Assembly: GCA_964276515.1 (NCBI GenBank)
Contig: OZ193909.1
Location: 17,484,001 to 17,548,000, forward strand
Source of the DNA: Gordius albopunctatus
Lineage: Eukaryota
Direction of reading: 5' to 3'
DNA: 64,000 bases
A program made the position numbers and the translations under genes. Below are positions 1-60,901 of this stretch, piece after piece. Position 1 is the stretch's first letter, and the number at the start of each line of letters is the position of its first letter. Below the pieces are notes generated by a model. That model saw only the letters and a program-made list of their open reading frames with translations, had not been told where the DNA came from and searched no databases.

Positions 1-58
1 TAAATTTAAAAGGCTACCTTTTGGCTTAAGCATTTCAGCTGCTATTTTTCAGCGTGCT

Positions 59-2035
59 ATGGCGTCGATTTTTAGTAATTTAGACGGTATAATATTTTAT
101 TTGGACGATATATTAATAACGGGACGAACGAGAGATGAGCATGATTTGCGTCTTGTTCAGGTCTTGAATTTAATTAGTCTAAAAGATTTAAAAGTTTCAG
201 CTAAAAAATGTGTTTTTGGGACTGAACAAATTAGCTATTTAGGACATATTTTAAATAATGGTAATATTCAACCAAAGTATGACAAGATAGAAGCCATTAA
301 AAATGTTAAGTTGCCTACTAATAAAAAGGAACTATCGTCATTTATGGGTTTAATGAATTATTATAGTAAATTTATAAATAATTACACTGAATATGCTGGA
401 CCATTATACGAACTGACAAAAAAAGACGTCATATTTAAATGGAGTAAAAGTGATATTGAAAAATTTGATTTTTTGAAAAATATCTTGCTTAAAAAACCCA
501 TTTTAAGATGTTTTGATCCTAACAAACAACATATATTAAGGGTCGATGCGTCTAATATTGGTATTGGAGGCGCATTATGTCAGGTCGAGGATGGTATGGA
601 GCATCCAATTTTGTATTTTTCGCGTAAATTAAATAAAACAGAGGTCGGATATTCGGTTATAGAACGCGAGGCATTAGCGATGATTTACGGTTTACAGCGA
701 TGTCGCGAATATTTAATTGGCAAATCGTTTACTGTGATCACCGATCATAAGCCGCTTGTTGCTTTATTTAAAAAGGCGAACGCCGAACTATTAATGTCTC
801 CTAGATTACAACGTTGGCTTGTAATGTTGGGTAATTTTACATTAACCCTAAAATACGGCAAGGGAGAGGATAATCATTTGGCTGATGTACTATCGCGTTT
901 GGGCGCAGATAACATTGAGGCCGAAGATTTACCTTTGTCTTGTGATATTATAGGAGGACATGTAATCAATTCTTTGAATATTTTAGATTTAAATGATATT
1001 GTTAATGAAAGTAACAGGGACCCTGAAATATGTAAAGTAAAGAATATTTTGGCGGGCTTAGACGATAAAATTAATGTACCTATTCCTTTTAAACATATTT
1101 TGAACGAATTATATTTAGAAGATAATGTTCTTAAAAAGCATGAAAGGTTAGTGGTACCGATTAAGCTTCGTCAGGAAGTGCTAAAAATAGTACATCAGGG
1201 ACACTGTGGAATGGTTAAAATGAAAAGCTTGGCTAGACAATATGTCTGGTGGCCGCAGTTAACTAAAGATATCCAAAAATTCGTTAGGCAGTGTGAGCTT
1301 TGTAAGCTTGATGCACCGATGCCGCGTAGAAATAAAAAATCTAAGTGGCCTCGTCCTAAATTTCCATGGGAGCGTATACACATAGATTTTTTTGAATTAG
1401 ATAAAAAACGGTACATATTAATAGTAGATGCATTTTCCGGTTGGACGGAATTTAGAATTATATCAAATATATCTAGTAGAGTAACAATTACAATTTTGAG
1501 GGAATTGATAGGAAATTATGGGTTTCCAGAAATAATTGTTACGGATAATGGTAAAGCTTTTGTTAGCAACGAGTTTAAACAATTTTGTTTAAAATATAAA
1601 ATTAATCATATTTTAACTCCACCGTACCATCCAAGCTCTAATGGGCAGGTAGAAAGGTATGTAGGTATTGTTAAAAAATGGTTAAAAATAGCTAAAGTAA
1701 CGAAGGACGGAACGTGGTTATCTAAACTTTATCACAATATGTCACCACGGTATCCTAATCGTGCTCCGGTTAGCTATGAGTTTTTGAATCGTAAATTAAG
1801 GTACCCACCCGATTTGTTAAAGTTCACTGAACACCAAACATCGCCCAGTATTAGTGTGCCAAAGTTTAAGGTAAACCAAAGAGTTTGGTATCGAAACTAT
1901 TTGGGGAAACCTAAATGGGTGTTAGGTGTAATTATTGAACAATTAGGGACAAAAGTTTATAAAGTTAAGGACTCAAATGAAAATAAATTTGAAATTAGGC
2001 ACGCGGAACAATTAAAATTGTTTGATGCTATATGA
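59..2035 (+). CDS. pol: Gypsy Pol, 5'-truncated by the window edge (RT C-terminal part, RNase H, integrase)
   Basis: YLDD; RNase H DAS..GIGG and TDHKPL; integrase HQGH..CELC, IHIDFF / VTDNG / GQVER. Confidence 0.95.
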   Translation: MASIFSNLDGIIFYLDDILITGRTRDEHDLRLVQVLNLISLKDLKVSAKKCVFGTEQISYLGHILNNGNIQPKYDKIEAIKNVKLPTNKKELSSFMGLMNYYSKFINNYTEYAGPLYELTKKDVIFKWSKSDIEKFDFLKNILLKKPILRCFDPNKQHILRVDASNIGIGGALCQVEDGMEHPILYFSRKLNKTEVGYSVIEREALAMIYGLQRCREYLIGKSFTVITDHKPLVALFKKANAELLMSPRLQRWLVMLGNFTLTLKYGKGEDNHLADVLSRLGADNIEAEDLPLSCDIIGGHVINSLNILDLNDIVNESNRDPEICKVKNILAGLDDKINVPIPFKHILNELYLEDNVLKKHERLVVPIKLRQEVLKIVHQGHCGMVKMKSLARQYVWWPQLTKDIQKFVRQCELCKLDAPMPRRNKKSKWPRPKFPWERIHIDFFELDKKRYILIVDAFSGWTEFRIISNISSRVTITILRELIGNYGFPEIIVTDNGKAFVSNEFKQFCLKYKINHILTPPYHPSSNGQVERYVGIVKKWLKIAKVTKDGTWLSKLYHNMSPRYPNRAPVSYEFLNRKLRYPPDLLKFTEHQTSPSISVPKFKVNQRVWYRNYLGKPKWVLGVIIEQLGTKVYKVKDSNENKFEIRHAEQLKLFDAI

Positions 2036-2062
2036 TTATGTTCAACGTTTATTGTTATTCAG

Positions 2063-2530
2063 ATGAGAATTAATGCTGCCTGGTGCGACGTGGATTTAGA
2101 GGTGACATCCACGGCATCGAGGAACGAAAGAGTTCCAGTGTATATACTAATAAAAGTGGAGACGAACGAAAGTGCAAGATTGTTGAACTTGACGCACTCT
2201 CCGGGTCCGCCGAGACAGGTTGGGAGATCGTACGCACAAGGCTCAAGAGCCCCAAGACAACCAAGACAGGAAGAGGCTGCGGTCAGAAGTAGAGATACGA
2301 ACGAAGAGCAGCGACGAAACGTGTCTGGGAATCAACCGTTGCTGCGGCCTCCGATCTTGAAAAGAAAGAAGTGTTGGGGGTGTAAAAGCAAGCACTTGCC
2401 CCCAATGTGCTTCAAAGCAAAAACTGGTTCGGGGAAGAAAACTCAACTCAAAGATGTAGCAGAGCTGGAGTCCAGGGTGACTATGGACACCCTGACCTTG
2501 GACAGCCCCGGTCCTTCAACTTCCCAATAA
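2063..2530 (+). CDS. ORF3 of the retroelement (155 aa, basic, CX2CX3HX4C motif), copy 1
   Basis: Open ORF between the pol stop and the PPT; ATG immediately preceded by TTATTGTTATTCAG acceptor; KRKKCWGCKSKHLPPMC. Confidence 0.7.
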   Translation: MRINAAWCDVDLEVTSTASRNERVPVYILIKVETNESARLLNLTHSPGPPRQVGRSYAQGSRAPRQPRQEEAAVRSRDTNEEQRRNVSGNQPLLRPPILKRKKCWGCKSKHLPPMCFKAKTGSGKKTQLKDVAELESRVTMDTLTLDSPGPSTSQ

Positions 2531-2537
2531 TGGAAGG

Positions 2538-3509
2538 TGTGGTATACGTGTATACCACGATACCAGATGTTATAGTATACAGCGTTTTATTTAATGTCCG
2601 CGGTATAAGCGTGTTATTTAATGTTCGCGGTATACTTTGATCTTAATTAAAATTATTTTATTAATGTTAATGTAAAAGGGTTAACGAACGGTTCCGCAAT
2701 CCTTGTAATTAAAAAAAAGGAATTGGTCAAAAGAAGACACTTTTACCGCAGGTTAACCCAGACGCGGAAGTGGCTAATTCTCTTTGACGCTCTCTTTTTT
2801 TAATTACTTTTACTTTTTATTTTTAACTCAGCCACATCTGTTACTAATCTTTGCAGCCCCGTCTGAAGATTTGCTAATTCAATCAAGCCGACCACCCTGG
2901 GGAGATCCAACAGCTATAAAAGCGAAAATCTCACTTCACTAAAAAAGTCCTCGTAAATTTTTCCCCAGTCCTTCGAAGTTTTCCCCTAACTTTGTATTGT
3001 CCCCAAAAACCTTATAATTGTTTCCAATCCCTACGCCTTCGCTCTTTTACTATAATATTATTGAATTGTGTANNNNNNNNNNNNNNNNNNNNNNNNNNNN
3101 NNNNNNNNNNNNNNNNNNNNNNNNNNNNNNNNNNNNNNNNNNNNNNNNNNNNNNNNNNNNNNNNNNNNNNNNNNNNNNNNNNNNNNNNNNNNNNNNNNNN
3201 NNNNNNNNNNNNNNNNNNNNNNNNNNNNNNNNNNNNNNNNNNNNNNNNNNNNNNNNNNNNNNNNNNNNNNNNTCACTTCACTAAAAAAGTCCTCGTAAAT
3301 TTTTCCCCAGTCCTTCGAAGTTTTCCCCTAACTTTGTATTGTCCCCAAAAACCTTATAATTGTTTCCAATCCCTACGCCTTCGCTCTTTTACTATAATAT
3401 TATTGAATTGTGTAATTTAATCTTCGCGAATATTAATCTGTCTTTATCGTTGTAAATAAATTTGCATCTTTCTTTTATACTTAATTTTCTTTCGCCTTAG
3501 ACCGCCGTC
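2538..3509 (+). repeat. 3' LTR of plus-strand copy (contains the N gap and a 142-bp duplicated overlap; lacks the terminal CA)
   Basis: Starts TGTGGTATACG after purine tract AATAATGGAAGG (2526-2537); matches 8586-9217 reverse complement; TATAAAA at 2915, AATAAA at 3455. Confidence 0.9.
3073..3272. other. Assembly gap (200 N); flanks 2931-3072 and 3273-3414 are the same 142 bp
   Basis: Direct reading of both flanks. Confidence 0.98.
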
Positions 3510-3827
3510 TGCAAAGATTAGTAACAGATGTGGCTGAGTTAAAAATAAAAAGTAAAAGTAATTAAAAAAAGAGAGCGTCAAAGAGAATTAGCCACTTCCG
3601 CGTCTGGGTTAACCTGCGGTAAAAGTGTCTTCTTTTGACCAATTCCTTTTTTTTAATTACAAGGATTGCGGAACCGTTCGTTAACCCTTTTACATTAACA
3701 TTAATAAAATAATTTTAATTAAGATCAAAGTATACCGCGAACATTAAATAACACGCTTATACCGCGGACATTAAATAAAACGCTGTATACTATAACATCT
3801 GGTATCGTGGTATACACGTATACCACA
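3509..3827 (-). repeat. Truncated 3' LTR (first ~319 bp only)
   Basis: Matches 8899-9217 apart from a substitution at 3611 versus 9001. Confidence 0.92.
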
Positions 3828-3834
3828 CCTTCCA

Positions 3835-4302
3835 TTATTGGGAAGTTGAAGGACCGGGGCTGTCCAAGGTCAGGGTGTCCATAGTCACCCTGGACTCCAG
3901 CTCTGCTACATCTTTGAGTTGAGTTTTCTTCCCCGAACCAGTTTTTGCTTTGAAGCACATTGGGGGCAAGTGCTTGCTTTTACACCCCCAACACTTCTTT
4001 CTTTTCAAGATCGGAGGCCGCAGCAACGGTTGATTCCCAGACACGTTTCGTCGCTGCTCTTCGTTCGTATCTCTACTTCTGACCGCAGCCTCTTCCTGTC
4101 TTGGTTGTCTTGGGGCTCTTGAGCCTTGTGCGTACGATCTCCCAACCTGTCTCGGCGGACCCGGAGAGTGCGTCAAGTTCAACAATCTTGCACTTTCGTT
4201 CGTCTCCACTTTTATTAGTATATACACTGGAACTCTTTCGTTCCTCGATGCCGTGGATGTCACCTCTAAATCCACGTCGCACCAGGCAGCATTAATTCTC
4301 AT
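3835..4302 (-). CDS. ORF3 of the retroelement (155 aa), copy 2
   Basis: Identical translation to 2063-2530; acceptor AG at 4304-4303 abuts the ATG. Confidence 0.7.
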   Translation of the reverse strand: MRINAAWCDVDLEVTSTASRNERVPVYILIKVETNESARLLNLTHSPGPPRQVGRSYAQGSRAPRQPRQEEAAVRSRDTNEEQRRNVSGNQPLLRPPILKRKKCWGCKSKHLPPMCFKAKTGSGKKTQLKDVAELESRVTMDTLTLDSPGPSTSQ

Positions 4303-4329
4303 CTGAATAACAATAAACGTTGAACATAA

Positions 4330-7300
4330 TCATATAGCATCAAACAATTTTAATTGTTCCGCGTGCCTAATTTCAAATTTATTTTCATTTGAGTCCTTAA
4401 CTTTATAAACTTTTGTCCCTAATTGTTCAATAATTACACCTAACACCCATTTAGGTTTCCCCAAATAGTTTCGATACCAAACTCTTTGGTTTACCTTAAA
4501 CTTTGGCACACTAATACTGGGCGATGTTTGGTGTTCAGTGAACTTTAACAAATCGGGTGGGTACCTTAATTTACGATTCAAAAACTCATAGCTAACCGGA
4601 GCACGATTAGGATACCGTGGTGACATATTGTGATAAAGTTTAGATAACCACGTTCCGTCCTTCGTTACTTTAGCTATTTTTAACCATTTTTTAACAATAC
4701 CTACATACCTTTCTACCTGCCCATTAGAGCTTGGATGGTACGGTGGAGTTAAAATATGATTAATTTTATATTTTAAACAAAATTGTTTAAACTCGTTGCT
4801 AACAAAAGCTTTACCATTATCCGTAACAATTATTTCTGGAAACCCATAATTTCCTATCAATTCCCTCAAAATTGTAATTGTTACTCTACTAGATATATTT
4901 GATATAATTCTAAATTCCGTCCAACCGGAAAATGCATCTACTATTAATATGTACCGTTTTTTATCTAATTCAAAAAAATCTATGTGTATACGCTCCCATG
5001 GAAATTTAGGACGAGGCCACTTAGATTTTTTATTTCTACGCGGCATCGGTGCATCAAGCTTACAAAGCTCACACTGCCTAACGAATTTTTGGATATCTTT
5101 AGTTAACTGCGGCCACCAGACATATTGTCTAGCCAAGCTTTTCATTTTAACCATTCCACAGTGTCCCTGATGTACTATTTTTAGCACTTCCTGACGAAGC
5201 TTAATCGGTACCACTAACCTTTCATGCTTTTTAAGAACATTATCTTCTAAATATAATTCGTTCAAAATATGTTTAAAAGGAATAGGTACATTAATTTTAT
5301 CGTCTAAGCCCGCCAAAATATTCTTTACTTTACATATTTCAGGGTCCCTGTTACTTTCATTAACAATATCATTTAAATCTAAAATATTCAAAGAATTGAT
5401 TACATGTCCTCCTATAATATCACAAGACAAAGGTAAATCTTCGGCCTCAATGTTATCTGCGCCCAAACGCGATAGTACATCAGCCAAATGATTATCCTCT
5501 CCCTTGCCGTATTTTAGGGTTAATGTAAAATTACCCAACATTACAAGCCAACGTTGTAATCTAGGAGACATTAATAGTTCGGCGTTCGCCTTTTTAAATA
5601 AAGCAACAAGCGGCTTATGATCGGTGATCACAGTAAACGATTTGCCAATTAAATATTCGCGACATCGCTGTAAACCGTAAATCATCGCTAATGCCTCGCG
5701 TTCTATAACCGAATATCCGACCTCTGTTTTATTTAATTTACGCGAAAAATACAAAATTGGATGCTCCATACCATCCTCGACCTGACATAATGCGCCTCCA
5801 ATACCAATATTAGACGCATCGACCCTTAATATATGTTGTTTGTTAGGATCAAAACATCTTAAAATGGGTTTTTTAAGCAAGATATTTTTCAAAAAATCAA
5901 ATTTTTCAATATCACTTTTACTCCATTTAAATATGACGTCTTTTTTTGTCAGTTCGTATAATGGTCCAGCATATTCAGTGTAATTATTTATAAATTTACT
6001 ATAATAATTCATTAAACCCATAAATGACGATAGTTCCTTTTTATTAGTAGGCAACTTAACATTTTTAATGGCTTCTATCTTGTCATACTTTGGTTGAATA
6101 TTACCATTATTTAAAATATGTCCTAAATAGCTAATTTGTTCAGTCCCAAAAACACATTTTTTAGCTGAAACTTTTAAATCTTTTAGACTAATTAAATTCA
6201 AGACCTGAACAAGACGCAAATCATGCTCATCTCTCGTTCGTCCCGTTATTAATATATCGTCCAAATAAAATATTATACCGTCTAAATTACTAAAAATCGA
6301 CGCCATAGCACGCTGAAAAATAGCAGCTGAAATGCTTAAGCCAAAAGGTAGCCTTTTAAATTTAAAAAGTCCGGCCTCGGTATTAATTGTTAGGAGCCGC
6401 GATGACTTTTCATCTACCTGTAACTGCAAATAAGCATTGGCAAGGTCAATTTTTGAGAAAAATTTAGCGCCTATTAATTTAGCAAAAATAATTTCTAACC
6501 TAGGTAAGGGGTATTTTACCTCAATAATACATTTGTTTACCGTGATTCTATAATCAGCACAAACCCTAATTGTACCGTCAGTCTTCCTGACAGGTACTAA
6601 AGGTGTGGCCCATTCCGAATAGCCAATAGGTTCAATTACATTATCCTTTAACCATGTTTTAATTACCTCGTCGACCTTATTTTTTAAAATAAAAGGTACG
6701 CGTCTGGCAGAACAAAATTTAGGAATGGCATTTAAATCAACTCTAACCGAAAATATTTCGTCATTTAAACATCCTAAACCAGGTTCAAAAATTTTAGAGA
6801 ATTGGTTTTTTATATTATCAATCTTGGTGTGCCATGTTGTGACCAAATCAGACTTTGCCTCCAAATTAGCTAATTTATGGCATGTGGGTACCAAAGGTAC
6901 CCCGCACTTTAAATCGGCCTGAAAAATGGGTTGTTCTTGGCAGACGGGACCTCCCGAGTTATCTGATTTATGAGCTATGCGCTCTAACTCAGAATGAAAA
7001 ACGGGTGTGAAATCCCTGCACTGTGAACTACCTGACAACGCCTTCGACATCACCATGGACTTAACATCAACTTTCAAAATTTTGCGAGCATTACTTTTAT
7101 TACATAATCCCCACCATTGAATTTTGGGCCCAATTATCCTAATCCAGGACCAGCCCATTATGTTATCTACGTTCTCTTTAATAATAAATAAATCCAATTC
7201 GACTACAAATTCTGCCACTTTAACCAAAACATTAATTTTACCTAAAACAGTTATTAAAGTATTATCAAGTTGCTTAGCAATTATATTAGCAGTTTCAAAA

Positions 7301-7458
7301 TTTCGATCCGGCCAAAATTTTTTAAATGTTTTAAAACTAATAATGGATATTGCGGCGCCAGTATCTAATATAAATGTTAGCTTAAAATTATCGACATTTA
7401 CTATCACTAAAGGTGAAGCTGACGAATTTAAAACTTTATTTATATCTACCTTGCGCAT
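4330..7458 (-). CDS. pol: Gypsy Pol polyprotein (aspartic protease, RT, RNase H, integrase), intact, 1042 aa from first Met
   Basis: LDTGAAIS protease; WATPLVPV, IDLANAY, LPFGL, YLDD RT motifs; RNase H; HHCC and DDE integrase. Confidence 0.97.
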   Translation of the reverse strand: MRKVDINKVLNSSASPLVIVNVDNFKLTFILDTGAAISIISFKTFKKFWPDRNFETANIIAKQLDNTLITVLGKINVLVKVAEFVVELDLFIIKENVDNIMGWSWIRIIGPKIQWWGLCNKSNARKILKVDVKSMVMSKALSGSSQCRDFTPVFHSELERIAHKSDNSGGPVCQEQPIFQADLKCGVPLVPTCHKLANLEAKSDLVTTWHTKIDNIKNQFSKIFEPGLGCLNDEIFSVRVDLNAIPKFCSARRVPFILKNKVDEVIKTWLKDNVIEPIGYSEWATPLVPVRKTDGTIRVCADYRITVNKCIIEVKYPLPRLEIIFAKLIGAKFFSKIDLANAYLQLQVDEKSSRLLTINTEAGLFKFKRLPFGLSISAAIFQRAMASIFSNLDGIIFYLDDILITGRTRDEHDLRLVQVLNLISLKDLKVSAKKCVFGTEQISYLGHILNNGNIQPKYDKIEAIKNVKLPTNKKELSSFMGLMNYYSKFINNYTEYAGPLYELTKKDVIFKWSKSDIEKFDFLKNILLKKPILRCFDPNKQHILRVDASNIGIGGALCQVEDGMEHPILYFSRKLNKTEVGYSVIEREALAMIYGLQRCREYLIGKSFTVITDHKPLVALFKKANAELLMSPRLQRWLVMLGNFTLTLKYGKGEDNHLADVLSRLGADNIEAEDLPLSCDIIGGHVINSLNILDLNDIVNESNRDPEICKVKNILAGLDDKINVPIPFKHILNELYLEDNVLKKHERLVVPIKLRQEVLKIVHQGHCGMVKMKSLARQYVWWPQLTKDIQKFVRQCELCKLDAPMPRRNKKSKWPRPKFPWERIHIDFFELDKKRYILIVDAFSGWTEFRIISNISSRVTITILRELIGNYGFPEIIVTDNGKAFVSNEFKQFCLKYKINHILTPPYHPSSNGQVERYVGIVKKWLKIAKVTKDGTWLSKLYHNMSPRYPNRAPVSYEFLNRKLRYPPDLLKFTEHQTSPSISVPKFKVNQRVWYRNYLGKPKWVLGVIIEQLGTKVYKVKDSNENKFEIRHAEQLKLFDAI

Positions 7459-7488
7459 ATCAATGTAATTTGAATTATCTTGCGCTAG

Positions 7489-7992
7489 TCAATCAAACAC
7501 AGTTTGCCCATTAGCAACTGTTTGCGCGTGATTGACGTGTCCTCTACACTTATAACAAAATTTACCGTCCCCAACCTCTTTTGTGTTGTCGTAATTATTC
7601 GAAGTGGTGGGTGCGTTAAAACTTGGAACGTTTTTCTGGTTAAATCTATAGTCAGTGTAGGGTCTATGGGGTTGCGCATAATTATTAAAATTTTCTCTCG
7701 GACCCCGTTGTGCAAAATTTTCCGAAATATATCTGCAATTTCCCGTATTCCCCCTTTTAAAATATTTATTGTCACAATCCCTTTTGAGATGTCCCCGTTG
7801 CCCACATCCATAACATCTTATATTAGATTTAAAATTAGCCTTAAGTACAAAAACTTTTTCTATTTTCTTTAATTTATATAAGACAAATAAAACTAATATG
7901 CTTAAAATTGATATATATACAAGTAATTTATCTGCGCACAAATAATTAAAAAAATTGATACCAATTGACGGCGGCGTGTAAAAACCAAACAT
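7489..7992 (-). CDS. gag: Gag-position ORF (167 aa): hydrophobic segment plus CCHC zinc knuckle; in frame with pol
   Basis: LLVYISILSILVLFVLY followed by KLKK; CYGCGQRGHLKRDC (CX2CX4HX4C); ends TGA CTA G, then 10 open codons to the pol ATG. Confidence 0.75.
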   Translation of the reverse strand: MFGFYTPPSIGINFFNYLCADKLLVYISILSILVLFVLYKLKKIEKVFVLKANFKSNIRCYGCGQRGHLKRDCDNKYFKRGNTGNCRYISENFAQRGPRENFNNYAQPHRPYTDYRFNQKNVPSFNAPTTSNNYDNTKEVGDGKFCYKCRGHVNHAQTVANGQTVFD

Positions 7993-8567
7993 TATAAATT
8001 ACCAAATGCAATCAGAACTATATTTAAATTAATTAAACTAAATAATTTAAATAGAAATCAAATTCAATCAAACAGCAATTTAAATTAAATAAACTAAATA
8101 ATTTAAATAGAAAATCAAATTTAATTAAATAAAGCAATTTAATTAAAACCAAGCTTAATTAAGTAATCTAAACAAAAGTTTTCGTTTAATCAAAAATTAA
8201 TTAAGTAAATCAAACAAGAGTTTTCAAATAAATTAATTATCATAATGTATACAGTAACCATTTTATTAAACATAGACGTATATAATAATTATTTAATATA
8301 AGTATCACGATTAAAAGTAAAATTATCAAACATAAAAACCCTTTATCCATTATTATGCATAAATAGAAATATTCACCTCCTAATAACTTCAATATAATAT
8401 TTTACAACCGAACATTATATGATCAAATCTATTCCAATATTTTACAACAGAAATATTCGATCAGACCTTATATTCAATTATAATTATTTAAACCAACATT
8501 CAAATAAAAATCTTTTACTAAAAAAATTATTTTTACTTACGATTCCTTTTTTTTAAGAAGAGGGCGA

Positions 8568-8578
8568 TTCTGACACCA
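8568..8578 (-). promoter_or_regulatory. Primer-binding site, likely tRNA-Leu
   Basis: TGGTGTCAGAA 7 nt inside the 5' LTR end; resembles the complement of the tRNA-Leu 3' end. Confidence 0.75.
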
Positions 8579-8585
8579 AATTTAA

Positions 8586-9217
8586 TGGACGGCGGTCTAA
8601 GGCGAAAAAAAATTAAGTATAAAAGAAAGATGCAAATTTATTTACAACGATAAAGACAGATTAATATTCGCGAAGATTAAATTACACAATTCAATAATAT
8701 TATAGTAAAAGAGCGAAGGCGTAGGGATTGGAAACAATTATAAGGTTTTTGGGGACAATACAAAGTTAGGGGAAAACTTCGAAGGACTGGGGAAAAATTT
8801 ACGAGGACTTTTTTAGTGAAGTGAGATTTTCGCTTTTATAGCTGTTGGATCTCCCCAGGGTGGTCGGCTTGATTGAATTAGCAAATCTTCAGACGGGGCT
8901 GCAAAGATTAGTAACAGATGTGGCTGAGTTAAAAATAAAAAGTAAAAGTAATTAAAAAAAGAGAGCGTCAAAGAGAATTAGCCACTTCCGCGTCTGGGTT
9001 TACCTGCGGTAAAAGTGTCTTCTTTTGACCAATTCCTTTTTTTTAATTACAAGGATTGCGGAACCGTTCGTTAACCCTTTTACATTAACATTAATAAAAT
9101 AATTTTAATTAAGATCAAAGTATACCGCGAACATTAAATAACACGCTTATACCGCGGACATTAAATAAAACGCTGTATACTATAACATCTGGTATCGTGG
9201 TATACACGTATACCACA
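8586..9217 (-). repeat. 5' LTR, 632 bp, TG...CA
   Basis: Begins TGTGG (9217), ends GTCCA (8586); TATAAAA at 8840-8834; AATAAA at 8642-8637. Confidence 0.92.
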
Positions 9218-9385
9218 ATCAGCTTAGAAACTTTAGGTATATCATTGGCCGCCAACCAAGCTTTATTGCAATAGGGTCTCATTGTTATCATGTTTTGCTG
9301 ATATATTGTGTAGTTTAAGTCAATAGGTACCATTATAGACGTAGCCCGATCCTCTACCCTCAATTTGCCCTCCGTTAATTTTTAC

Positions 9386-13091: not shown

Positions 13092-14387
13092 TTATTTGCG
13101 CGATTTAGATAAAAATTCATTGATTATATCTTGAGTGTCTGGAATTAAATCTCTATGAATATTCAACAAGGTCAAACCTATAAGCCTATATAAAATTAAG
13201 AGTTTGTAATAAAATGTATTTACCTCTCTTGCCCAGTTCTATTCCTCAAGTAAGTTTTAAGTCTTCTCAGCGTAGAAAAACTTCTTTCATTAGAACACGT
13301 TGTTACTGGGAGTGTTGCTAAAATCTGGTATAACACTCTTATATTTGGATATAGAAGCAGCTTGGAATTATAATCCCACAATGCTTTTAGTGCATAAAAA
13401 GGCAGGACTTCAGGGTTACAATCTTTAAAAGATTGATACCAGAGTTTAATCTCAGCCTCATAAATTTCTTGATTTCCATTCAAATCATCCCCATAAAAAT
13501 TGGCTAAATTCAAAAAGTTCGCCAGTTTAACTTCAGATAGCTTTACAGGTGGTTGTAGTAGTAAAGAATGAAATCCCATGAGAATTTGTTTATTCTCAAG
13601 AAACCTTGTGTCCATTTCTACCAAAAAAGTGTCTAAGAATGCATTATACAGAGTTATTCTATAATAAGCCTCCGGGGTTTGTTGGGCATTTCCTCTGGGA
13701 ATCGAAATCTCAAAGTCATATTGTTTTCCCATCAATGTGACATCTTTAAAAATCCTGGAAAACTCTACCTGAGAATTATTTCTAATTAATTTAATAGCTT
13801 CCACAACGTTTTCGGCCGCATTTATTGCCTGTGATAAGTCCAGGTTAACGCTTTGCAAATGAATACTAAGATTTAAAGTATAAGCAAAAATTTGCTTTAG
13901 TGTGTGTAATGATAACCAAAAATGGCCAGTTTTAAGTGCTGATACCAATAGCATGGCACCCGAAGAGGAATCATTGTCTGCCCATTCACTAATCTGCTCA
14001 AGGGTTGTGATGATTGAATCTCTTAATTCAAAAAAGCGGTTTATTGCTTGATGCTTTTGAACCCATCTTGTTTCACAGAGAGTTTTTAATTTCAAATTTT
14101 TGGAATCTGAAGACTTTACAATTGAATCAAACTTTATTCAAATTGATAGAGGAATTCATATGAAATGCATACGTTTTATAACCACAAGGAAAATTTAGGA
14201 AAAATATATTAACGCCTAAAAATACTTAATGGTTGTTGAAAATAAGAGCTCTCCATAGTTAATTAAATAGCACTCATTTTATAATATTTACTATATAATG
14301 CTATATTAGAAAATAAAAAATATTTTTTCGAAATCCGCGGGGGGGGGGGTTTGAACCCTAAAACCCCCCCCCTTGCGTACGCCACTG
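13092..14387 (-). pseudogene. Internally deleted hAT transposon (ZMYM1/PRKRIR-like transposase C-terminal half)
   Basis: LCETRW and LPVTTCSNERSFSTLRRLKTYLR; a 38-nt intron (13186-13223) leads to RLIGLTLLNIHRD...SRK*; CAGTGGCGTA terminus at 14387. Confidence 0.85.
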
Positions 14388-40689: not shown

Positions 40690-41070
40690 ATGCGAAGGTA
40701 TAAACTAAATAATAATATCAAAGTATTTATAACAAAATTTGAGCTATTCCTAAGGACCGAGCTTAAACCCGGGACGAACGAGAGAAAAGCTGCGATGCTA
40801 TTAGGCAACCTCGAGGGGTAGGTATTCCAATTATTGTTATAAGTCTTTAGACCGCGAGATCTTACAGGAATTTTATACGAAGAAGCTAAGAAACAGCCAA
40901 GGAAATTATTCGATAGGAATTCATGTGTGATGGCAATGAGATATAAATTCTCAAAGGTTCGACAAGAGGTGGGGGAGACGATATACGTATACGCGAAAAA
41001 ACTCAATGCCACAACTCACAGATGCAATTTAGGAAACAAAAAATTGCAAAACAGATTATTTTATTAATTT
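40690..41070 (+). pseudogene. gag: Decayed conventional Gypsy/Mag gag capsid region
   Basis: KAAMLLGNLEG*..LYEEAKK..VMAMRYKFSKVRQEVGETIYVYAKKL..RCNLG with in-frame stops; possible PBS TGGCGA at 40496. Confidence 0.65.
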
Positions 41071-46000: not shown

Positions 46001-49000
46001 ATGGTTAATGTAACTAATGTAATGCCACATGTGGCGGTTCTATTTTCTACACTTTAGGACCATGGGGGAGGGAATTAGTGAATAAAAAGAGACCTTACAC
46101 TAGGCAAGCGCGTCTGTAAAATGGCGCGCCGCATAACATCACTAAGTATTAGTAAACATCGCAAAAACAGAATGTACTCTAGTGTACTCCTATTTACAGA
46201 CATAGTTGAAAGAATTTTGATAAGGCGAAGTGTTTGCATTAACACATAAATTCATAAAGAGAAACAAAAATTAAAATATAGCCCTGTAAATTAATCAATG
46301 GTCTATATGATTATATAAATAACATTAAAAATAAATATAAAAAATGGCATGGTAATATAGCCTCTTAAGACGCAAAAAGGCATCTTTTGAACCTTTATCA
46401 TCATTTATCTCGAAATCTGGACGTCTTGGTGAAAAACTAAAAATGATTAGCATATCTCTATCAAAAATTTTGGTCCGATTGTTGCTGTGTTATTCGATTG
46501 CCAAAATTTGTTATCTTTTTAGACTTTATGATATTATTTCTTTATCGGCGAATTTAAGAACATAGCAACTGTAGCGGATATAAAAGAAGAATACCTATAT
46601 GGTAATTTAGCCCAAACTGCCGATTCGATTAAAATAGACATCAACCCTAAGAAAGAGGATAATTTTTCGATTTACGAGAATACCAACCTAGCCGGCGATG
46701 AAAAGGATATGATTAACAAGTTTCCCCTTACGGCATCTTTTATTTAATTTAATTATCTCTCCTGTTAGGTGTATAGATGAGATATTGGTTAAATTGATTA
46801 AGACTTCCATCAATGCAAACGATAACTTTTGTGAGCAGCTCTCCCCATCCCTTCTTTCCCACCTACGGAACTTGGTTCGACAAAGGTTGTGGTTCGAGAA
46901 AATAACTGACGAACAGCACATGCTTAAATGGGAATCGACGATCGTTGAAATGGCATTGAGGGTTATTGATTTTATTGAGTTACGTCCTACCGGAAATCCT
47001 GAATTTGATAACATATGTTCTTGTATCAAAATCAAAAAAATTTCCCCATCCTATCTTTATTTTTTACATGATGCCGAGCTAATGGAGAAAAAGGAAGAAA
47101 GGGCAATCTTTCTTTTTCCAGGCATAGTGTTTACGCAAAATTTGGTTCACAAGGATATGACAATGTTTTCGGCTAAGCCCAAATTAATGTCCATTGCAAG
47201 CCAACATAATTTATTGTTAGAATTACCTCAACCTAGTATATTAATGCTACGCGGTCCTATAGAATACCAGAGGGTCGAACACAAGCTTGCATCCCTCGAA
47301 CCCATAATAATGCAGGAGCGTGAATATTTAAAAAATGTGGTGGCCAAAATAACAGCTCTCAAGCCTGACATCGTTATAGTGCTCAAACAAGTTTGTCTCT
47401 TGGCTCGCGAACTTATGCTAGAAGCTGGGATTGCTTTGATACACAATGTTAAGAAGGAACAACTTTTCACACAACTCTCCATTTTAGTTGAAGCGGAAGT
47501 CGTACGATCTATGGAAGGTGGTCACTTGTTTTTTAAACCGAAAATGGGGCTGTGTAGAAGTCTAAAAATTGTGAAGGTTTACTCATTGGGAAGCAAAAGT
47601 AAAACGCTGGTATTTGTAGAGGCATATTCTGCAAGCGACCAATATATCTCAAAACCCGAAAGACTACCCTATTGTACACTTTTATTATCTACTTCGCGTA
47701 ACCTAAGAATTGCCGGAATTATTAAACGAATACTCCGTTTTACCATATATGCCGCTTATCACCTTAAGCTCGATGCAAGTTTCGGCGTTAGCTGCCAAGT
47801 CAAAAACGAAACCATAACAAAAGAATTATCCTACTCCGAATGGACTAAAGCTTTTAGAACATTAATGCAACTCAAAAATTTCTTATTTTATCCTGAAAAG
47901 GTCGCTGATGCTACTCTGATCGAAAATGATGTTAAACATTTGAGTCCTTCTGGGGAAACTCCAGACGCCTGCGTAAATAAAGTAGCTCTTTACCAATTGC
48001 TCCTTCTAAATATCTCGCTATCTGTAACCCCCGACGTTCGTTTTAAAATTCCTTATATGGATTGCTTAAAAGAACTAACGTCAAACCCTTTTCGAGGTGC
48101 GGATGATAATGCAAAGATGAAACATTACGCTTATTTGTCAAACATGATACCGTCTCGCCTGTATTTTTCTAAATTTTGGGATAACACTCCTGGGGAGATT
48201 TTGTTGCCTCCTAACTGTGATTCAAATGAGAAAAATGATGTTCCTATAACGAATATCTCTGAAACTAAAGATGGTTTATTATTCCGACACTTTGTTGAAT
48301 CATCCGATGATTTAGGAGATTATTTAGCGCGTTTTAGGTACGAAGATGAATACATGGTAACGCCCAACAAGGAAACGGAAGTTATTGATGAAAATCATAA
48401 CCTTTTACAAAATTCGCCACCTGATTGCTTCGATATAACGTCTTTACAAAGGATACACTTTTTGTTCTACAGTTTCTCTACCAACTCTACCAATTACCCT
48501 TCATACTGTATATCTCCTTGGATCGTTAAAATGAATTTTTACGGTTTGCACGATATAAGCCTTCACACCTTTTTGTTTCGATTTTGTTTTGATCCGAATT
48601 ATCAATGCCCGAGCAGCGTTTGTCAAGCTTCTTGCTTGACCCACGTACGTCGGTTCGTCCACGATAATCGGAGTATTAACATCACTTTACTAAATTATGC
48701 GAGCGATGGGGTGAAAAACAAACAATTTTTTTCAGCAGACGTGATCATCTATTGGACTGGTTGTAAAAAATGCGGGGTTCCTCTTACCGGTCCCAGTTGT
48801 ATGTCACGGTATGCTAAGCAACTTTCTTTCGGGAAGTATTTAGAATCCTTGGCTTATGGACGGACCAACGATGGAAACACTTGCAAGACGTCTCAGTGCT
48901 CTGATGCTTCCATCGAAGCGAGAGCTACGAACCTGAACCATTTTTTTGCTTACCGTTCCGTAGTGGCCTGTTTTACATGTCAGAATGTTAAAATAGGTAA

Positions 49001-51287
49001 CATCGTTTTCCCACCTTCTCAAATAAACTTTTACCAAAATCTTTCATCTGAGTTTAGGAGAACGTGTTTAAATGACGTCGAATGCCTAACCGTACTGGGT
49101 TACAACGTTTTTAATTCTATTAATGAACGAATTCTCTTATATGGGACTGAAATACTTAATCAATCTTCTTCGCCTCTTGAACAAGATAAGATTAACGAAA
49201 TGTGTAGCACACTCGAACGCGACAGGACGGCTTTTAAGGAGCTACTCGAAGGTTCGCAAATTATGTTGACAAAAGTTCCAAGAGCGCAACTCATGAATGG
49301 ATCAAAACCTGACTCGCAACTCTGTTCGGAAATTGATGAAAACATGTACGTTATCGAAAATCTTTTGTGCGAAGCCAAATCTCTACTCGTTAGATGCATC
49401 TATTCTTGGAATCCCAGACTTAGCGACATGTTTAACATGTGGAAAAGTGAAAAATCTGGTAAAAATATGGGCAATACATCTCTAGACAAAGATATAGAAA
49501 AGGGGAAAATGAGGGAGTCTAAATTCAAGCAGACTGATATTGCTGAAAGTTGCCTTAATAATACTGCAAGCAATATAGCGACCATTAGTAGTCAAGTCCA
49601 GGATAATAAACGATCCCAAGAGGGAAAATTAGATGAAATGTTTAGCGTTGGTAAGAAATTGGACGCCACAATTTGTGACGTGGAACAAGATAACCTCGAA
49701 ACAAATAATTTAGGAGATTCAAAAAAGGACGTGACTTTTACATTTAACATCAAAAATAAATTGTCCGCTTTAATATCCTCAAGTTCATTCGATCCTATAC
49801 CAACTCCATTCTCCCCCTTTGAACATTACAATCTACCATTTAATGCAAATGACCATTTGCGAACTATGGTTTCAGAGGAGATGCCTAGCTCAATCATTGC
49901 TTTCGCCCTATCTACGATGGAGTACGAAATTCGGTTAAAGGAAATAAAGCGATTTAGCGGAACTCTCATCGAACCTTCTATTCCTAAAACAAATTCTCAT
50001 TTAATTCAGCCACAACAAACCCAAGTTTTTGGCGAAATGGACAATAATTTACAATTTAAATCGAATGAAAACACCGGTAGTACAAAAAATTCAAATAATA
50101 TTAGCTACATTCCTACATTGCAAGATAAAGAAAAAGATTCCCGTGAATCACAACAGCGTTCGCAGCATATTGAAATAAACTTTCAAGACGATACCACCTC
50201 TGCTAAGTTTTATTGTAAAATTTATTTTGCAAACGAATTCTCACGCCTACGAGCTCTACTTTTTCCTAAAGGCGATATTCAATACGCTCGTTCTTTATCA
50301 CGGTCGATTAAATGGTTTACAGGAGGGGGGAAATCTGGTTCAAGTTTTTGTAAAACCAGCGATGGTCGCTTCTTAATCAAGCAAATGTCACGCCTTGAAC
50401 TTCAATCTTTTTTAAATTTTGCAATCCCTTACGTCGCCTACCTTAAAAATTCCATGAGGACTTCAGCAATTAATAAAAAAGAGGAAAGCGGTTGCCTTGT
50501 TAATACCATTGCCTTGGCAAAAATAGTGGGCGCATATAAAGTCAGCTTTAAAAATTTGGTGAATAATACATCGGTCAAACAAGATTACATCGTAATGGAA
50601 AACCTATTTTACGGTAAACGATCGATAAAACGTGTGTTTGATCTCAAAGGATCAGTCCGGAATCGACTTGTCAATGTTGACCTATTGACGCCGTCAACTA
50701 ATGAATCGGAAACTTTTGACAAAACCACTAATCGCGTAAACCTACAAGATCAGGCATCCTCATTTGGTACATCAGAGCCAAATACGTTTTTAGAATCTGA
50801 AACTAAACGCGCGGCGGAGCCTGAATGTCAAATACCGTTAAACAATTTTGATACATCCGACTACACTAAGGATGAAAGGAAACCGCAGATACCTAACGTC
50901 GTTTTATTGGACGAAAATTTTATAAGGATGACGTTGGAGACACCTTTGTATATCTACCCCTTTTCCAAGATGGTTATCATCAACACATTAGAACGTGATA
51001 CTCAGTTTTTAGCTGATCATGAAATTATGGATTACTCACTTCTCGTCGCTTGGGATGCCGACTCTGATGAATATAGTATAGGGATCATCGATTACATCAG
51101 ATCTTTCACCTGGGACAAAAGGTTAGAAATGGTCGTAAAAAAGTCTGGATTGCTTGGGGGCCAAGGCAAAACTCCCACTATTATATCGCCCCAGATGTAC
51201 AGAGCGCGCTTCATAGACGCTATGAAACGTTACTTCTTAGCCACGCCTGATCACTGGTACAATCTAGCCACAATCCCAAACATATGA
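43047..51287 (+). CDS. PIKFYVE: 1-phosphatidylinositol 3-phosphate 5-kinase (FYVE, DEP, CCT-like, CHK, PIPK domains)
   Basis: WMPD..CYEC..RRRHHCRICGQIFCSKC FYVE; DEP-like exons 43841-44326; GGKSGSSF, DLKGS, IMDYSLL, GIIDYIR..TWDK; final exon 46769-51287; start and middle exons approximate. Confidence 0.95.
44900..46470. mobile_element. Old TIR element in the long PIKfyve intron
   Basis: Degenerate inverted match between ~44905-45000 and ~46375-46465. Confidence 0.45.
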
Positions 51288-57605: not shown

Positions 57606-58778
57606 TTTGCAGCTCTCCCCCCCCCCCCCTTTACACCACCTGAAAATTAAAATGAACTAATAAATTTAACGGCTAAATGAACCTTAAAAATATTCTGTCA
57701 AAATTAAAAGTATCAAAATTTTATTTAATAAATTTTAGATGAAATTAGAGATGTGAGATGCACTGAACAACTTAGCGTTAATCCAATGATACACCAAAAA
57801 AAATTTTTAGGATTTTTATCCCTTTAAAGTCTTGATGCGTTAAAAATTGTCCATAAAATTCAGGAATTTTTTATTAATATTAATTTATGAAACTTATGAA
57901 TGGTGAACTTTTATCAGTAAACTTCTTAGTGTTCCGAATCGACAAATATGGCATACAAATTAGAACTTGATAAACAAGTCGTTTACCCTACCACGCCTAA
58001 TAAATTTTGAAACAAACCGGTTTGGGTCAGAAAACATATCACGTTAACATGGCCTAAAGGAAAAGTATTAGCAAGAAATGGTTTGTTATCTGATAAGATT
58101 AGGCGTAATGATGCATTTATGCATAAGAGGGCTGATAAAATAAGGAGATGAAGTAGTTAGAAGTCAAAAATTACCAAGTCCAACTTCAGTCGCTTTAAAA
58201 CGATCCGAAAAAGTTATTGCCCATAGAAAGTGACACAGCGGTTTTTGCTTTGCATTTTTATAAAAATAGAATAAGATATATATTTGGCGACTGTTCTAAT
58301 GTGTTTGGTATAGTTAATTTTTTCCATAGAAAATATTAGAACAAACTAAGTAAATAAAAGGACGAATTTAAAATATGGCTCTAGACAATTAGCTAGCGAA
58401 TATTAGAATTCTCAAAGGTTTAGCACAAAATTTAACTATTCGCAATTAATGTTAAATTCAAAGGCCCCATCTTAATTTTTATTCGCAATTCTCCAGTTCA
58501 CATTTAAGTGGTCATATGTATAAAGCATAGCAAACTATTTTTTGCTTAAAGTAAATAATCTTCCTTAGATTCACTTTCTGATTTTTCATAATGATAAATT
58601 TTTTATAAATGATATAATTAACTAACTTTGTTATAGCGTGCCAACGCGTGATTGTAACCTTAGCATTCATTCCTTGGTAATTAAAAAGTTATCAATGTTT
58701 TGGCTGACTTTAGCCTTTGTTATATAAACTTTTAAATTATATGTAATTTATAACCCGATGGTATAAAATTAAAATTAT

Positions 58779-60901
58779 ATGTTATCAACAAATATGACGT
58801 TGGAAGATTCTTTTATATCTCAAGAACTCAATACAACTACTGATAGCTCCAAATATTGCCAAACTTTTGATGAAATAGATGAATCTTCTCATGATTCAAA
58901 GTGTGAAAGAGAAATAGGATGCGATCATTTACATCCTTCACCAAATTGTGATTTTTGTCCAAAAGATTCTACGAAATTTTTAAGCCTCAACCCAAGATGT
59001 TCAAAATTTGAAGATGACCAGACTACTTCATTTAATGCCAAGAGTATTTGCAATGGTGTAGATTCTAATCTAAATGGTAAAAAAAGTTCTAGTCATTCAA
59101 GATTATCCTTAAAAAAAGTTTATCTTCAGCCATTTATTCATCAAGTTGGGGGACATCTTTGTATGCTCAAATATGATAAAGATACATTATGTAAACCATT
59201 GCAAGAAAAGGAGCAAGAGTTCTATGAAAACCAAGTACCAAATATACTGAAACCTTTTATTCCAACATATTATGGTATTTTTAAATTTTTATTTGCATAC
59301 AACAAAATATACATATATATATGAATTATCAATACAGATCTATATTAATATATTAAAATACCCTTTATCTTTATTGCCTAATTATAGTATATTAACTTTA
59401 CTTATAGTTTTAATTTATTACTGCTCTTTTATATAGTTAGATAATATTTTTATTGATCTTTAAGGAACTATTAAAGTCCATATTGAAGAAGATGAACATG
59501 GTTATGTGAATTTAGTCACTTCAGTCAATGATCTCACCAATAATAAGTGTGATGGATTGCTAGCAAAAAATCAGAATAATTCTTTTGATCTGTAAATAGC
59601 ATGTTTATTAGTTTGTCCTTTTACTCAATTGTTTTATATAAAATACTTTATTTAGACTATCATCAATTCAAGTGAAGATGAAGTCTACCGGCAGCTTAGA
59701 AGTATTGGATCCCTTGATGCTGAATCTTTTTGAAAAAGCTGACCCATTTAAGACCAATGATTCTTCTTTTAAATGCAAAACTTATTCATTCAATCCTTGG
59801 AGTTTAAAGCGACACAAAGAACAGATTGTTTCAATGAGAAATAATAATGACATAACTTATAGTAATATGTGATGTTAATATAAAATGTCTTTAATTGCAA
59901 AAAGTATAATAAAATTTAGGGGATATTAATACAGTTGGCACAATGAAATTACCATTTTGTTATGTTATCTTAGAATTCATTCGTCTCGAGGATTTAACTG
60001 CAAAATTTAAGTACCCTTGTGTGCTTGACCTGAAAATGGGAACGCGACAATATGGCGACGACGCACCCGAGCAGAAAAAAATAACTCAAAGGGCCAAATG
60101 TCAAGCTAGTACCTCGGCCAGTCTCGGGATTCGCATATGTGGTATGCAGGTATGTCATTTTGGGAATAAGATATCCTAAAAGCCAGTATTTTAAACTTAT
60201 CATTCATTATAAAGAGTGTTCTCCCGGGTTCATTTTATATATCGATTTTTAAAATAATTTATTTAAATGCTTAGGTGTCACAACCCTTTACTTATTAGAG
60301 AACACGAATTTTTAAATACTAAGCTAAAAATAATACAAATATAATGGCCTAAAACGTAAATACGAAACAAACGCAGGTTTATCAGCCCGAAAAGGGGGCC
60401 TTCTTTTGTTACGACAAATACATCGGGCGCAAATTAACAGTAACGGAGTTTGAGCAATCCCTACGAACCTACTTAGCCACGAGCGTATCTAATTGCACTA
60501 TTCACGGTGGACCGGACGTGGTGGGTGCCATATTAGAAAGGCTTAAGGCTCTGAAACAAGCCTTGCTCACTTTAGACAGTTACCGCTTTTATTCGAGTTC
60601 TCTCCTGATTATGTACGAAGGAGCTGCCCCACCTCGCTCCAACGGCGAAGATACAAGTCACGGGAAGAGGCACTGCAGTTGGCGATGCGCCACCGCAGAT
60701 TCCTTAATAAAGGTAAAAATGATCGATTTTGCCCATTCCACCGGAGACCCTAGCCAAAATCTGCCCGTTCATACGGGTACTGATAAGGGCTATCTATTCG
60801 GACTCACCAATCTCATACGGATCATAGAATGCACGCACGAAGAACAGTCAAAAACTCTTTTGGTTCCTAAGGATGGAACGGCGATTAAACAGCTTTCATG
60901 A
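58779..60901 (+). CDS. IP6K: Inositol hexakisphosphate kinase-like (exons 58779-59274, 59465-59591, 59656-59861, 59974-60149, 60377-60901)
   Basis: [30 protein letters not shown]; frame-consistent GT-AG introns. Confidence 0.92.

Follow-up and report, generated by a model that had tools for sequence, protein, structure and literature searches.

A third gene behind a candidate subgenomic splice in a Ty3/gypsy retrotransposon of Gordius albopunctatus with no detectable capsid

Regulators of the accessory kind, familiar from complex retroviruses, are rare among retrotransposons with long terminal repeats (LTRs). Among retroviruses and errantiviruses, env expression relies on a layout in which a splice donor lies shortly after the primer binding site (PBS) and an acceptor precedes the open reading frame (ORF). 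A similar layout is considered here for a Ty3/gypsy element found at 9217-3509 (minus strand) in a 64,000-nucleotide (nt) stretch of Gordius albopunctatus DNA (contig OZ193909.1, positions 17,484,001 to 17,548,000; hereafter the window), where it would serve a small gene located after pol, designated ORF3. The closest described counterpart is CERV, the product of a spliced Cer1 mRNA: it has a KRKK signal, its cysteines are essential, and export of the genomic RNA requires it (PMC10309623).

Third ORFs distinct from env have been described in elements of bdelloid rotifers, and the typical ORF3 is spliced. In the same source, the Mag lineage is characterized by gag-pol without a frameshift and by two adjacent knuckles, and the text lists no ORF3 for the Mag family and contains no CCHC ORF3 (PMC5408684). 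The regulatory candidates of plant Retand elements are antisense (PMC11963269), while the small accessory ORFs of MDG1 are located upstream of gag on unspliced RNA, a layout that differs from the present one (10.1101/2025.03.14.642691). With respect to gag loss, the rice element Tos17, a gag-less copia, has intact pol, LTR, PBS and polypurine tract (PPT), and a helper Gag has been proposed for it (PMC3977881). No direct precedent for a knuckle-bearing ORF3 in the Mag clade, for a capsid-less element or for a spliced third ORF, and no description of these features together, was found in a literature survey that covered few subscription papers.

Coding constraint on ORF3

ORF3 (3835..4302, minus strand) encodes 155 amino acids (aa), and a stop-free frame of its length arises in 0.14% of shuffles (P=0.0014). 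Its guanine plus cytosine (GC) content is 51%, compared with a fraction of 0.34 in pol. Variation among copies was analysed with contigs from two runs (X1 and X2, of one study that may be the assembly source), aligned to 3826-4460 at 80% likeness. Among the 34 listed differences located within ORF3, 25 are synonymous, against an expectation of 10.0 +/- 2.6 that never reached 25 in 20000 resamplings, and the shifted frames give 3/34 each. Third codon positions account for 26 of the 34 (binomial P=3e-7). The constraint can be followed to the very beginning of the frame, with synonymous changes starting at codon 2 and codons 2, 3, 5 and 6 showing synonymous variation only. ORF3 is a real protein-coding gene under purifying selection from its own ATG, and the accessory gene postulated in the original prediction was in this respect borne out, its synonymous differences starting at the ATG that lies right behind the acceptor.

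Contigs about 80-85% alike still retain ORF3, and the diverged ones realign at codons 1-36, codons 90-115 and the C-terminus while skipping the middle; these are approximately the conserved blocks of the protein. The second block contains the KRKK sequence (residues 100-103) and the adjoining Cys/His knuckle CX2CX3HX4C (104-116), both of which had been pointed out beforehand. The protein had also been described as Arg-rich, which holds as far as the count (16/155, 10.3%) and an isoelectric point (pI) of 10.0 are concerned, but the enrichment is modest, and no part of the protein aligns as poorly as the Arg-containing middle.

Several other identities were considered for ORF3. An envelope protein was rejected, given that the best 19-residue hydropathy is 0.45, meaning no membrane segment, and that the 155-aa product has no signal peptide, membrane anchor, large ectodomain or Pfam match; the absence of a signal peptide and of a transmembrane segment agrees with the original prediction. 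ORF3 is not a C-terminal extension of pol either, because in some variant copies a stop directly precedes the ATG while the YAG of the acceptor is kept. A FAST-like fusogen and a capsid relocated into ORF3 were equally rejected.

When compared with a profile of 100 related Gags, the ORF3 knuckle matched the second knuckle with 6.3 bits, and against the element's own Gag knuckle it showed 6/15 identical residues (E=0.18). Although the resemblance is weak, the profile match exceeds all 1000 shuffles (0/1000 reach 6.3), which suggests a nucleocapsid origin for the ORF3 knuckle. No homologue was present among 79 candidates (lengths 85-272 only), no match was obtained in metagenome and viral contigs, and three distant metagenome pol loci carried no ORF3 relative. 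The profile search and structure prediction that had been proposed as checks gave no family in Pfam or NCBIfam (remote homologues being outside their scope) and no fold, the predicted model having a predicted local distance difference test (pLDDT) score of 38, with mostly low confidence and probable disorder. The Protein Data Bank (PDB) returned a single chance match (E=0.51), and none for a model of residues 1-46 (pLDDT 66). In the Atlas, the top scores of ORF3 were 0.91, in unnamed arthropod-rich clusters and with a recognition of 2265, below the 2300 mark, so that they serve as a lead only.

Splice signals and leader

The candidate donor GTAAGT (8535..8540, minus strand) starts at 8540, 28 nt past the 11-nt PBS, and is the only one on the minus strand in 3500-9300, with 21 in the whole window on both strands. 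Using an approximate splice-site matrix, it ranked first of 273 GT sites when only the intron letters were scored. The candidate acceptor (4303..4316, minus strand) has its AG at 4304-4303, adjoining the ORF3 ATG at 4302, an arrangement seen for 7 of 263 AGs, and it is preceded by 62 AG-free nt, a length found at 2.3% of sites. No ATG occurs from the TATA box (8840) to the donor, with 3.5 expected (P=0.022, shuffle), and splicing of 8541 to 4302 would place A instead of C at position -3 of the AUG. Donor, acceptor and AUG-free leader were all found as originally predicted. The mirror copy of the acceptor at 2062/2063, invoked together with them, does exist, but it lies within a 2856-nt inverted duplicate of 100% identity next to an N gap and is therefore neither a second observation nor independent support.

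The splice sites of the element and the stretch that follows the donor match the intron style of the host, whose sites are equally loose. Three introns of an IP6K-like host gene, checked for frame continuity, have 16-27% GC and T/A-rich acceptors, and one of their donors follows an exon end other than G. Taken alone, the donor, acceptor, leader and knuckle motifs are good and moderately unusual; strong evidence comes from the way in which the copies vary. A change at -3, present in four contigs of X1 and six of X2, creates a stop in the upstream codon of the ORF3 frame and keeps the YAG, changes at -8 and -9 leave a pyrimidine in place or bring one in, and the pol stop codon alternates between two stop codons. 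The acceptor before ORF3 thus behaves as a retained signal among variant copies and, judging from the motifs and their conservation, the 8541-to-4302 splice probably takes place. A single change, at -17, makes a candidate branch-like motif weaker. The 15 of 63 rows listed for the run contigs contain no 8541/4302 joint, and one contig crosses the acceptor unbroken; these contigs behave as DNA and therefore have no bearing on splicing.

The element, its reduced gag and the missing capsid

The place of the capsid part of gag is occupied by an AT-rich intron-like stretch (7841..8540, minus strand; 700 nt, 19% GC, 47% T), which contains eight AUGs at 8499-8243 and ends at a host-acceptor-like AG where GC steps from 0.15 to 0.37 (7841/7840). 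Each frame of 7841-8540 has 16-30 stops, and the interval from the donor to 7841 is thus too limited to accommodate a capsid domain. No capsid was detected in the six frames of 3826-9220, where the profile of 100 related Gags matched knuckle columns only, or in the 169 stop-free codons of the frame before pol, for which Pfam and PDB gave knuckles only. As a positive control, the same profile found a decayed capsid at 40.7-41.1 kb (E=1.8e-13), a stop-containing Gag remnant of another Gypsy element (40699-41058, plus strand), and therefore capsid-bearing relatives existed in the host. Contigs covering 7392-7932 and 7973-8554 show no substitutions and have a depth close to that of the contigs from ORF3 and pol, depth not being copy number, and 7933-7972 is unbridged among the 16 of 3598 contig pieces listed. 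The absence of the capsid is likely shared by near-identical copies and family-wide, and other copies may have a longer gag form.

What is left of gag (7489..7992, minus strand) corresponds to 167 aa from ATG 7992, with a hydrophobic segment (residues 23-41), a CCHC knuckle, an Asn-rich linker and a second Cys/His motif. It had no homologue among 26 candidates (lengths 91-293 only), and its best Atlas score was 0.85. No stop interrupts the 57 codons by which the frame extends into the AT-rich stretch (7822-7992), as occurs in 0.5% of shuffles (P=0.005, post hoc), and this N-terminal extension encodes the hydrophobic segment followed by lysines at an intron-like GC of about 0.24. The 244 nt upstream of ATG 7992 are devoid of ATG (P=0.012), and an in-frame 81-nt GT..AG segment (7920-7840) would excise the hydrophobic N-terminus. 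Gag and pol share one frame, interrupted at the gag end by an in-frame TGA followed by CTAG, which is presumably a readthrough context. A gag-UGA-pol precedent exists in Candida Tca2 (PMC2194720); PMC5009743 gave no passage on CUAG. RNA folding after the gag UGA gave no stable structure (z=-0.2). The AG at 7486-7485 may act as an alternative acceptor, the first AUG after it (7458) being in the pol frame, and splicing may also be needed for gag or pol.

Two further features of this region were recorded. In the +1 frame, an ATG-started ORF of 108 codons overlaps the tail of gag (7485-7811, minus strand); it stays open in 2.6% of synonymous resamplings and has no Pfam match. The octamer CCGCCGTC of the LTR end (8595) reappears at 7974, followed by the PBS-like TGGTATCA (7955-7974, minus strand), and occurs nowhere else in the window apart from the LTR copy.

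The assignment to Ty3/gypsy is based on the domain order of pol (4330..7488, minus strand; an intact frame of 1052 aa encoding protease, reverse transcriptase (RT), RNase H and integrase) and on the presence of two LTRs, a PBS and a PPT, the 3' LTR being cut by an inverted duplicate. The 5' LTR (8579..9217, minus strand) starts with TGTGG at 9217, has its TATA box at 8840 and AATAAA at 8642, and ends somewhere in 8586-8579. A PPT-like segment (3828..3839, minus strand) overlaps the ORF3 stop, and of the 3' LTR only the U3 part is present (3509..3827, minus strand), which meets an inverted LTR copy at 3508. Because this remnant and the 5' LTR show 1 difference across 318 comparable nt, the insertion is young. 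The 11-nt PBS (8568..8578, minus strand) is presumably of tRNA-Leu type, and the 64-kb window contains no tRNA gene. The LTR end directly before the PBS, at 8592-8604 (minus strand), is the position of a possible second primer contact; we take it to resemble the complement of the tRNA-Leu D-arm, which would mean a two-part primer contact. The inverted duplicate (1..3508, plus strand) comprises the 3' part of pol, ORF3 (2063-2530) and LTR. Its first 2856 nt (1-2856) are a tail-to-tail inverted copy of 3509-6364 with 100% identity, and a 142-nt exact overlap flanks its 200-N gap, the whole being either a fold-back or an assembly mirror.

The closest pol matches were two proteins of Gordionus sp. 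(45% and 42% identity), the other 118 listed having 34-39%. In an RT-RNase H tree of 45 sequences, built solely from search hits without named Mag references, the element joined the two Gordionus proteins with a support of 1.0. The label 'K02A2.6-like' presumably refers to Mag. One trait of the Mag lineage was recognized in the translation, read by eye. The element departs from the gag-pol and knuckle traits of the lineage: gag and pol are in the same frame but with the in-frame TGA between them, and instead of two adjacent knuckles there is one canonical knuckle, the second Cys/His motif being atypical and placed at a distance.

The DNA of the window is from an animal, as it includes a PIKfyve-like gene (46713-51287, plus strand) with an uninterrupted frame of 1524 codons and the IP6K-like gene (58773-60901, plus strand), which has short AT-rich introns with weak splice sites. 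A hAT-type transposase fragment lies at 13220-14137 (minus strand).

Function of ORF3 and comparison with known systems

In the proposed mechanism, the PBS-proximal donor at 8540 would be joined to the acceptor at 4303 to give a subgenomic ORF3 mRNA, whereas the full-length RNA would retain a host-like intron with eight upstream AUGs. Because this intron is retained, the unspliced genomic RNA would need export help, that is, a factor allowing it to avoid splicing and nuclear retention, which ORF3 would supply or regulate. ORF3 is a natural candidate for this role because KRKK lies beside the knuckle in its best-kept block, Rev/CERV-like traits at the motif level that are maintained in diverged contigs. 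ORF3 would then be an accessory gene expressed from a short spliced RNA, whose basic zinc-knuckle product is likely nuclear and would act on the element's unspliced RNA as Rev or CERV do. This reading is drawn by analogy and is tentative, with somewhat less than an even chance of being correct.

A number of observations weigh against it. The variation data come from samples of one study, possibly the assembly source itself, and 40 of 125 difference rows were used, 34 of them within ORF3. Some copies are broken, as indicated by four deletions of a single base within the final third of ORF3, each in one low-depth contig per run, and two in-frame insertions occur in the middle, whose Arg/Pro/Gln sequence behaves unlike a conserved RNA-binding arginine motif. 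An export-signal-like pattern at 139-146, one of two pattern matches in ORF3, carries no weight because 60% of shuffles have one too, and no homologue or fold connected ORF3 to CERV or Rev in the searches run. The 8541-4302 junction is predicted from motifs only; with exon letters scored the donor falls to rank 18/273, and the acceptor ranks 17/263. Furthermore, donor 8540 opens an intron-like stretch and has nearer candidate acceptors at 8094, 8038, 7932, 7840 and 7485, among which 7840 is host-acceptor-like and coincides with a sharp composition step, so that this donor may serve more than ORF3. CERV itself is different in build, with 517 aa, exons shared with gag, three folded domains and a C4-type loop (PMC10309623).

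In one alternative, ORF3 is real but expressed from an internal promoter or a nearer donor within integrase, donor 8540 serving to remove the AT-rich intron before gag/pol. Scored with the full matrix, the best donor of the element is the one at 4708, which precedes the acceptor by about 400 nt, with TATAAAA at 4770, and the 19% GC stretch opened by donor 8540 ends on an AG. However, AT-rich DNA often contains TATAAAA, the two motifs are inside integrase coding sequence, and an AUG-free leader with a PBS-proximal donor fits the classical subgenomic layout; this alternative is unlikely. About as unlikely is the possibility that ORF3 is a second nucleocapsid-like chaperone or scaffold that offsets the reduced Gag during RNA packaging or reverse transcription. 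The alignment of its knuckle to the Gag knuckle profile and, loosely, to that of the element, its basic pI and a Gag of only 167 aa without capsid speak for such a role, whereas the KRKK next to the knuckle suggests a nuclear location and Gag retains a canonical knuckle of its own.

ORF3 could also counter host silencing at the piRNA (PIWI-interacting RNA) or chromatin level, by binding nucleic acids or by using short motifs of its disordered parts to recruit host proteins. A probably disordered model with conserved ends and a variable middle would suit this function, and the GC difference from pol fits a separate origin in a family that looks young; yet there is no direct evidence, and the searches run gave no similarity to a known suppressor, which leaves it more doubtful than the two preceding alternatives. 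Finally, a chance frame or neutral cargo with coincidental splice motifs would explain the lack of homologues and the Atlas recognition below the mark, but it is already contradicted by the synonymous bias, the frame specificity, the length of the open frame and its retention in contigs about 80-85% alike, and is barely credible.

The missing capsid matters more than ORF3. The simplest and most likely reading, again by analogy, would be that the family borrows its capsid from another Gypsy element of the host acting as helper; if so, an animal gypsy element has retained pol together with a third gene and borrows the shell, and helper dependence is testable. An autonomous capsid-less lineage, in which a membrane-anchored nucleocapsid made up of the hydrophobic segment, the knuckle and the Asn-rich linker replaces the shell, UGA readthrough or splicing provides pol, and the spliced ORF3 controls or scaffolds the genomic RNA, is very improbable; if it were true, a capsid would not be required for LTR retrotransposition.

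The helper reading has its nearest parallel in Tos17, with which the element shares an intact pol, LTR, PBS and PPT in the absence of a full gag. Tos17 is, however, a plant copia from which gag was cleanly removed, while the animal gypsy described here keeps the nucleocapsid part, an in-frame UGA and a third gene (PMC3977881). Mag-like (K02A2.6-like) Ty3/gypsy relatives share the pol domain order with the element at 34-45% identity, but typical ones have a single frame for gag-pol, a Gag whose roughly 290 aa include the capsid the element lacks, and a median of 84 residues after the integrase end motif, compared with 12 in the element. As to the third gene, its position after pol and the placement of donor and acceptor are those of errantiviral and retroviral env, from which the 155-aa ORF3 differs in having no signal peptide, membrane segment or ectodomain. 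The rotifer elements Juno and Vesta likewise carry a family-specific third ORF in the env position that does not encode an envelope, although theirs are DEDDy exonucleases, GDSL esterases, coiled-coil or membrane proteins, unlike the knuckle ORF3 (PMC5408684).

The resemblance to CERV of Cer1, a Ty3/gypsy element of C. elegans, consists of a gypsy accessory protein made from a spliced mRNA (as inferred for ORF3), a KRKK nuclear signal and a cysteine cluster, and in both elements the genomic RNA retains splice sites (PMC10309623). A domain resembling a capsid is present in Cer1, whose gag-pol is not split by a stop, whereas the present element has neither a capsid nor a stop-free gag-pol. Compared by description only, ORF3 is a 155-aa protein encoded 3' of pol with a CCHC-type knuckle. 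By inference, it would work like CERV, with no family membership implied. CERV is the one worked-out export factor of an LTR retrotransposon that was found, and ORF3, if its proposed role is true, would represent an independent and much smaller solution.

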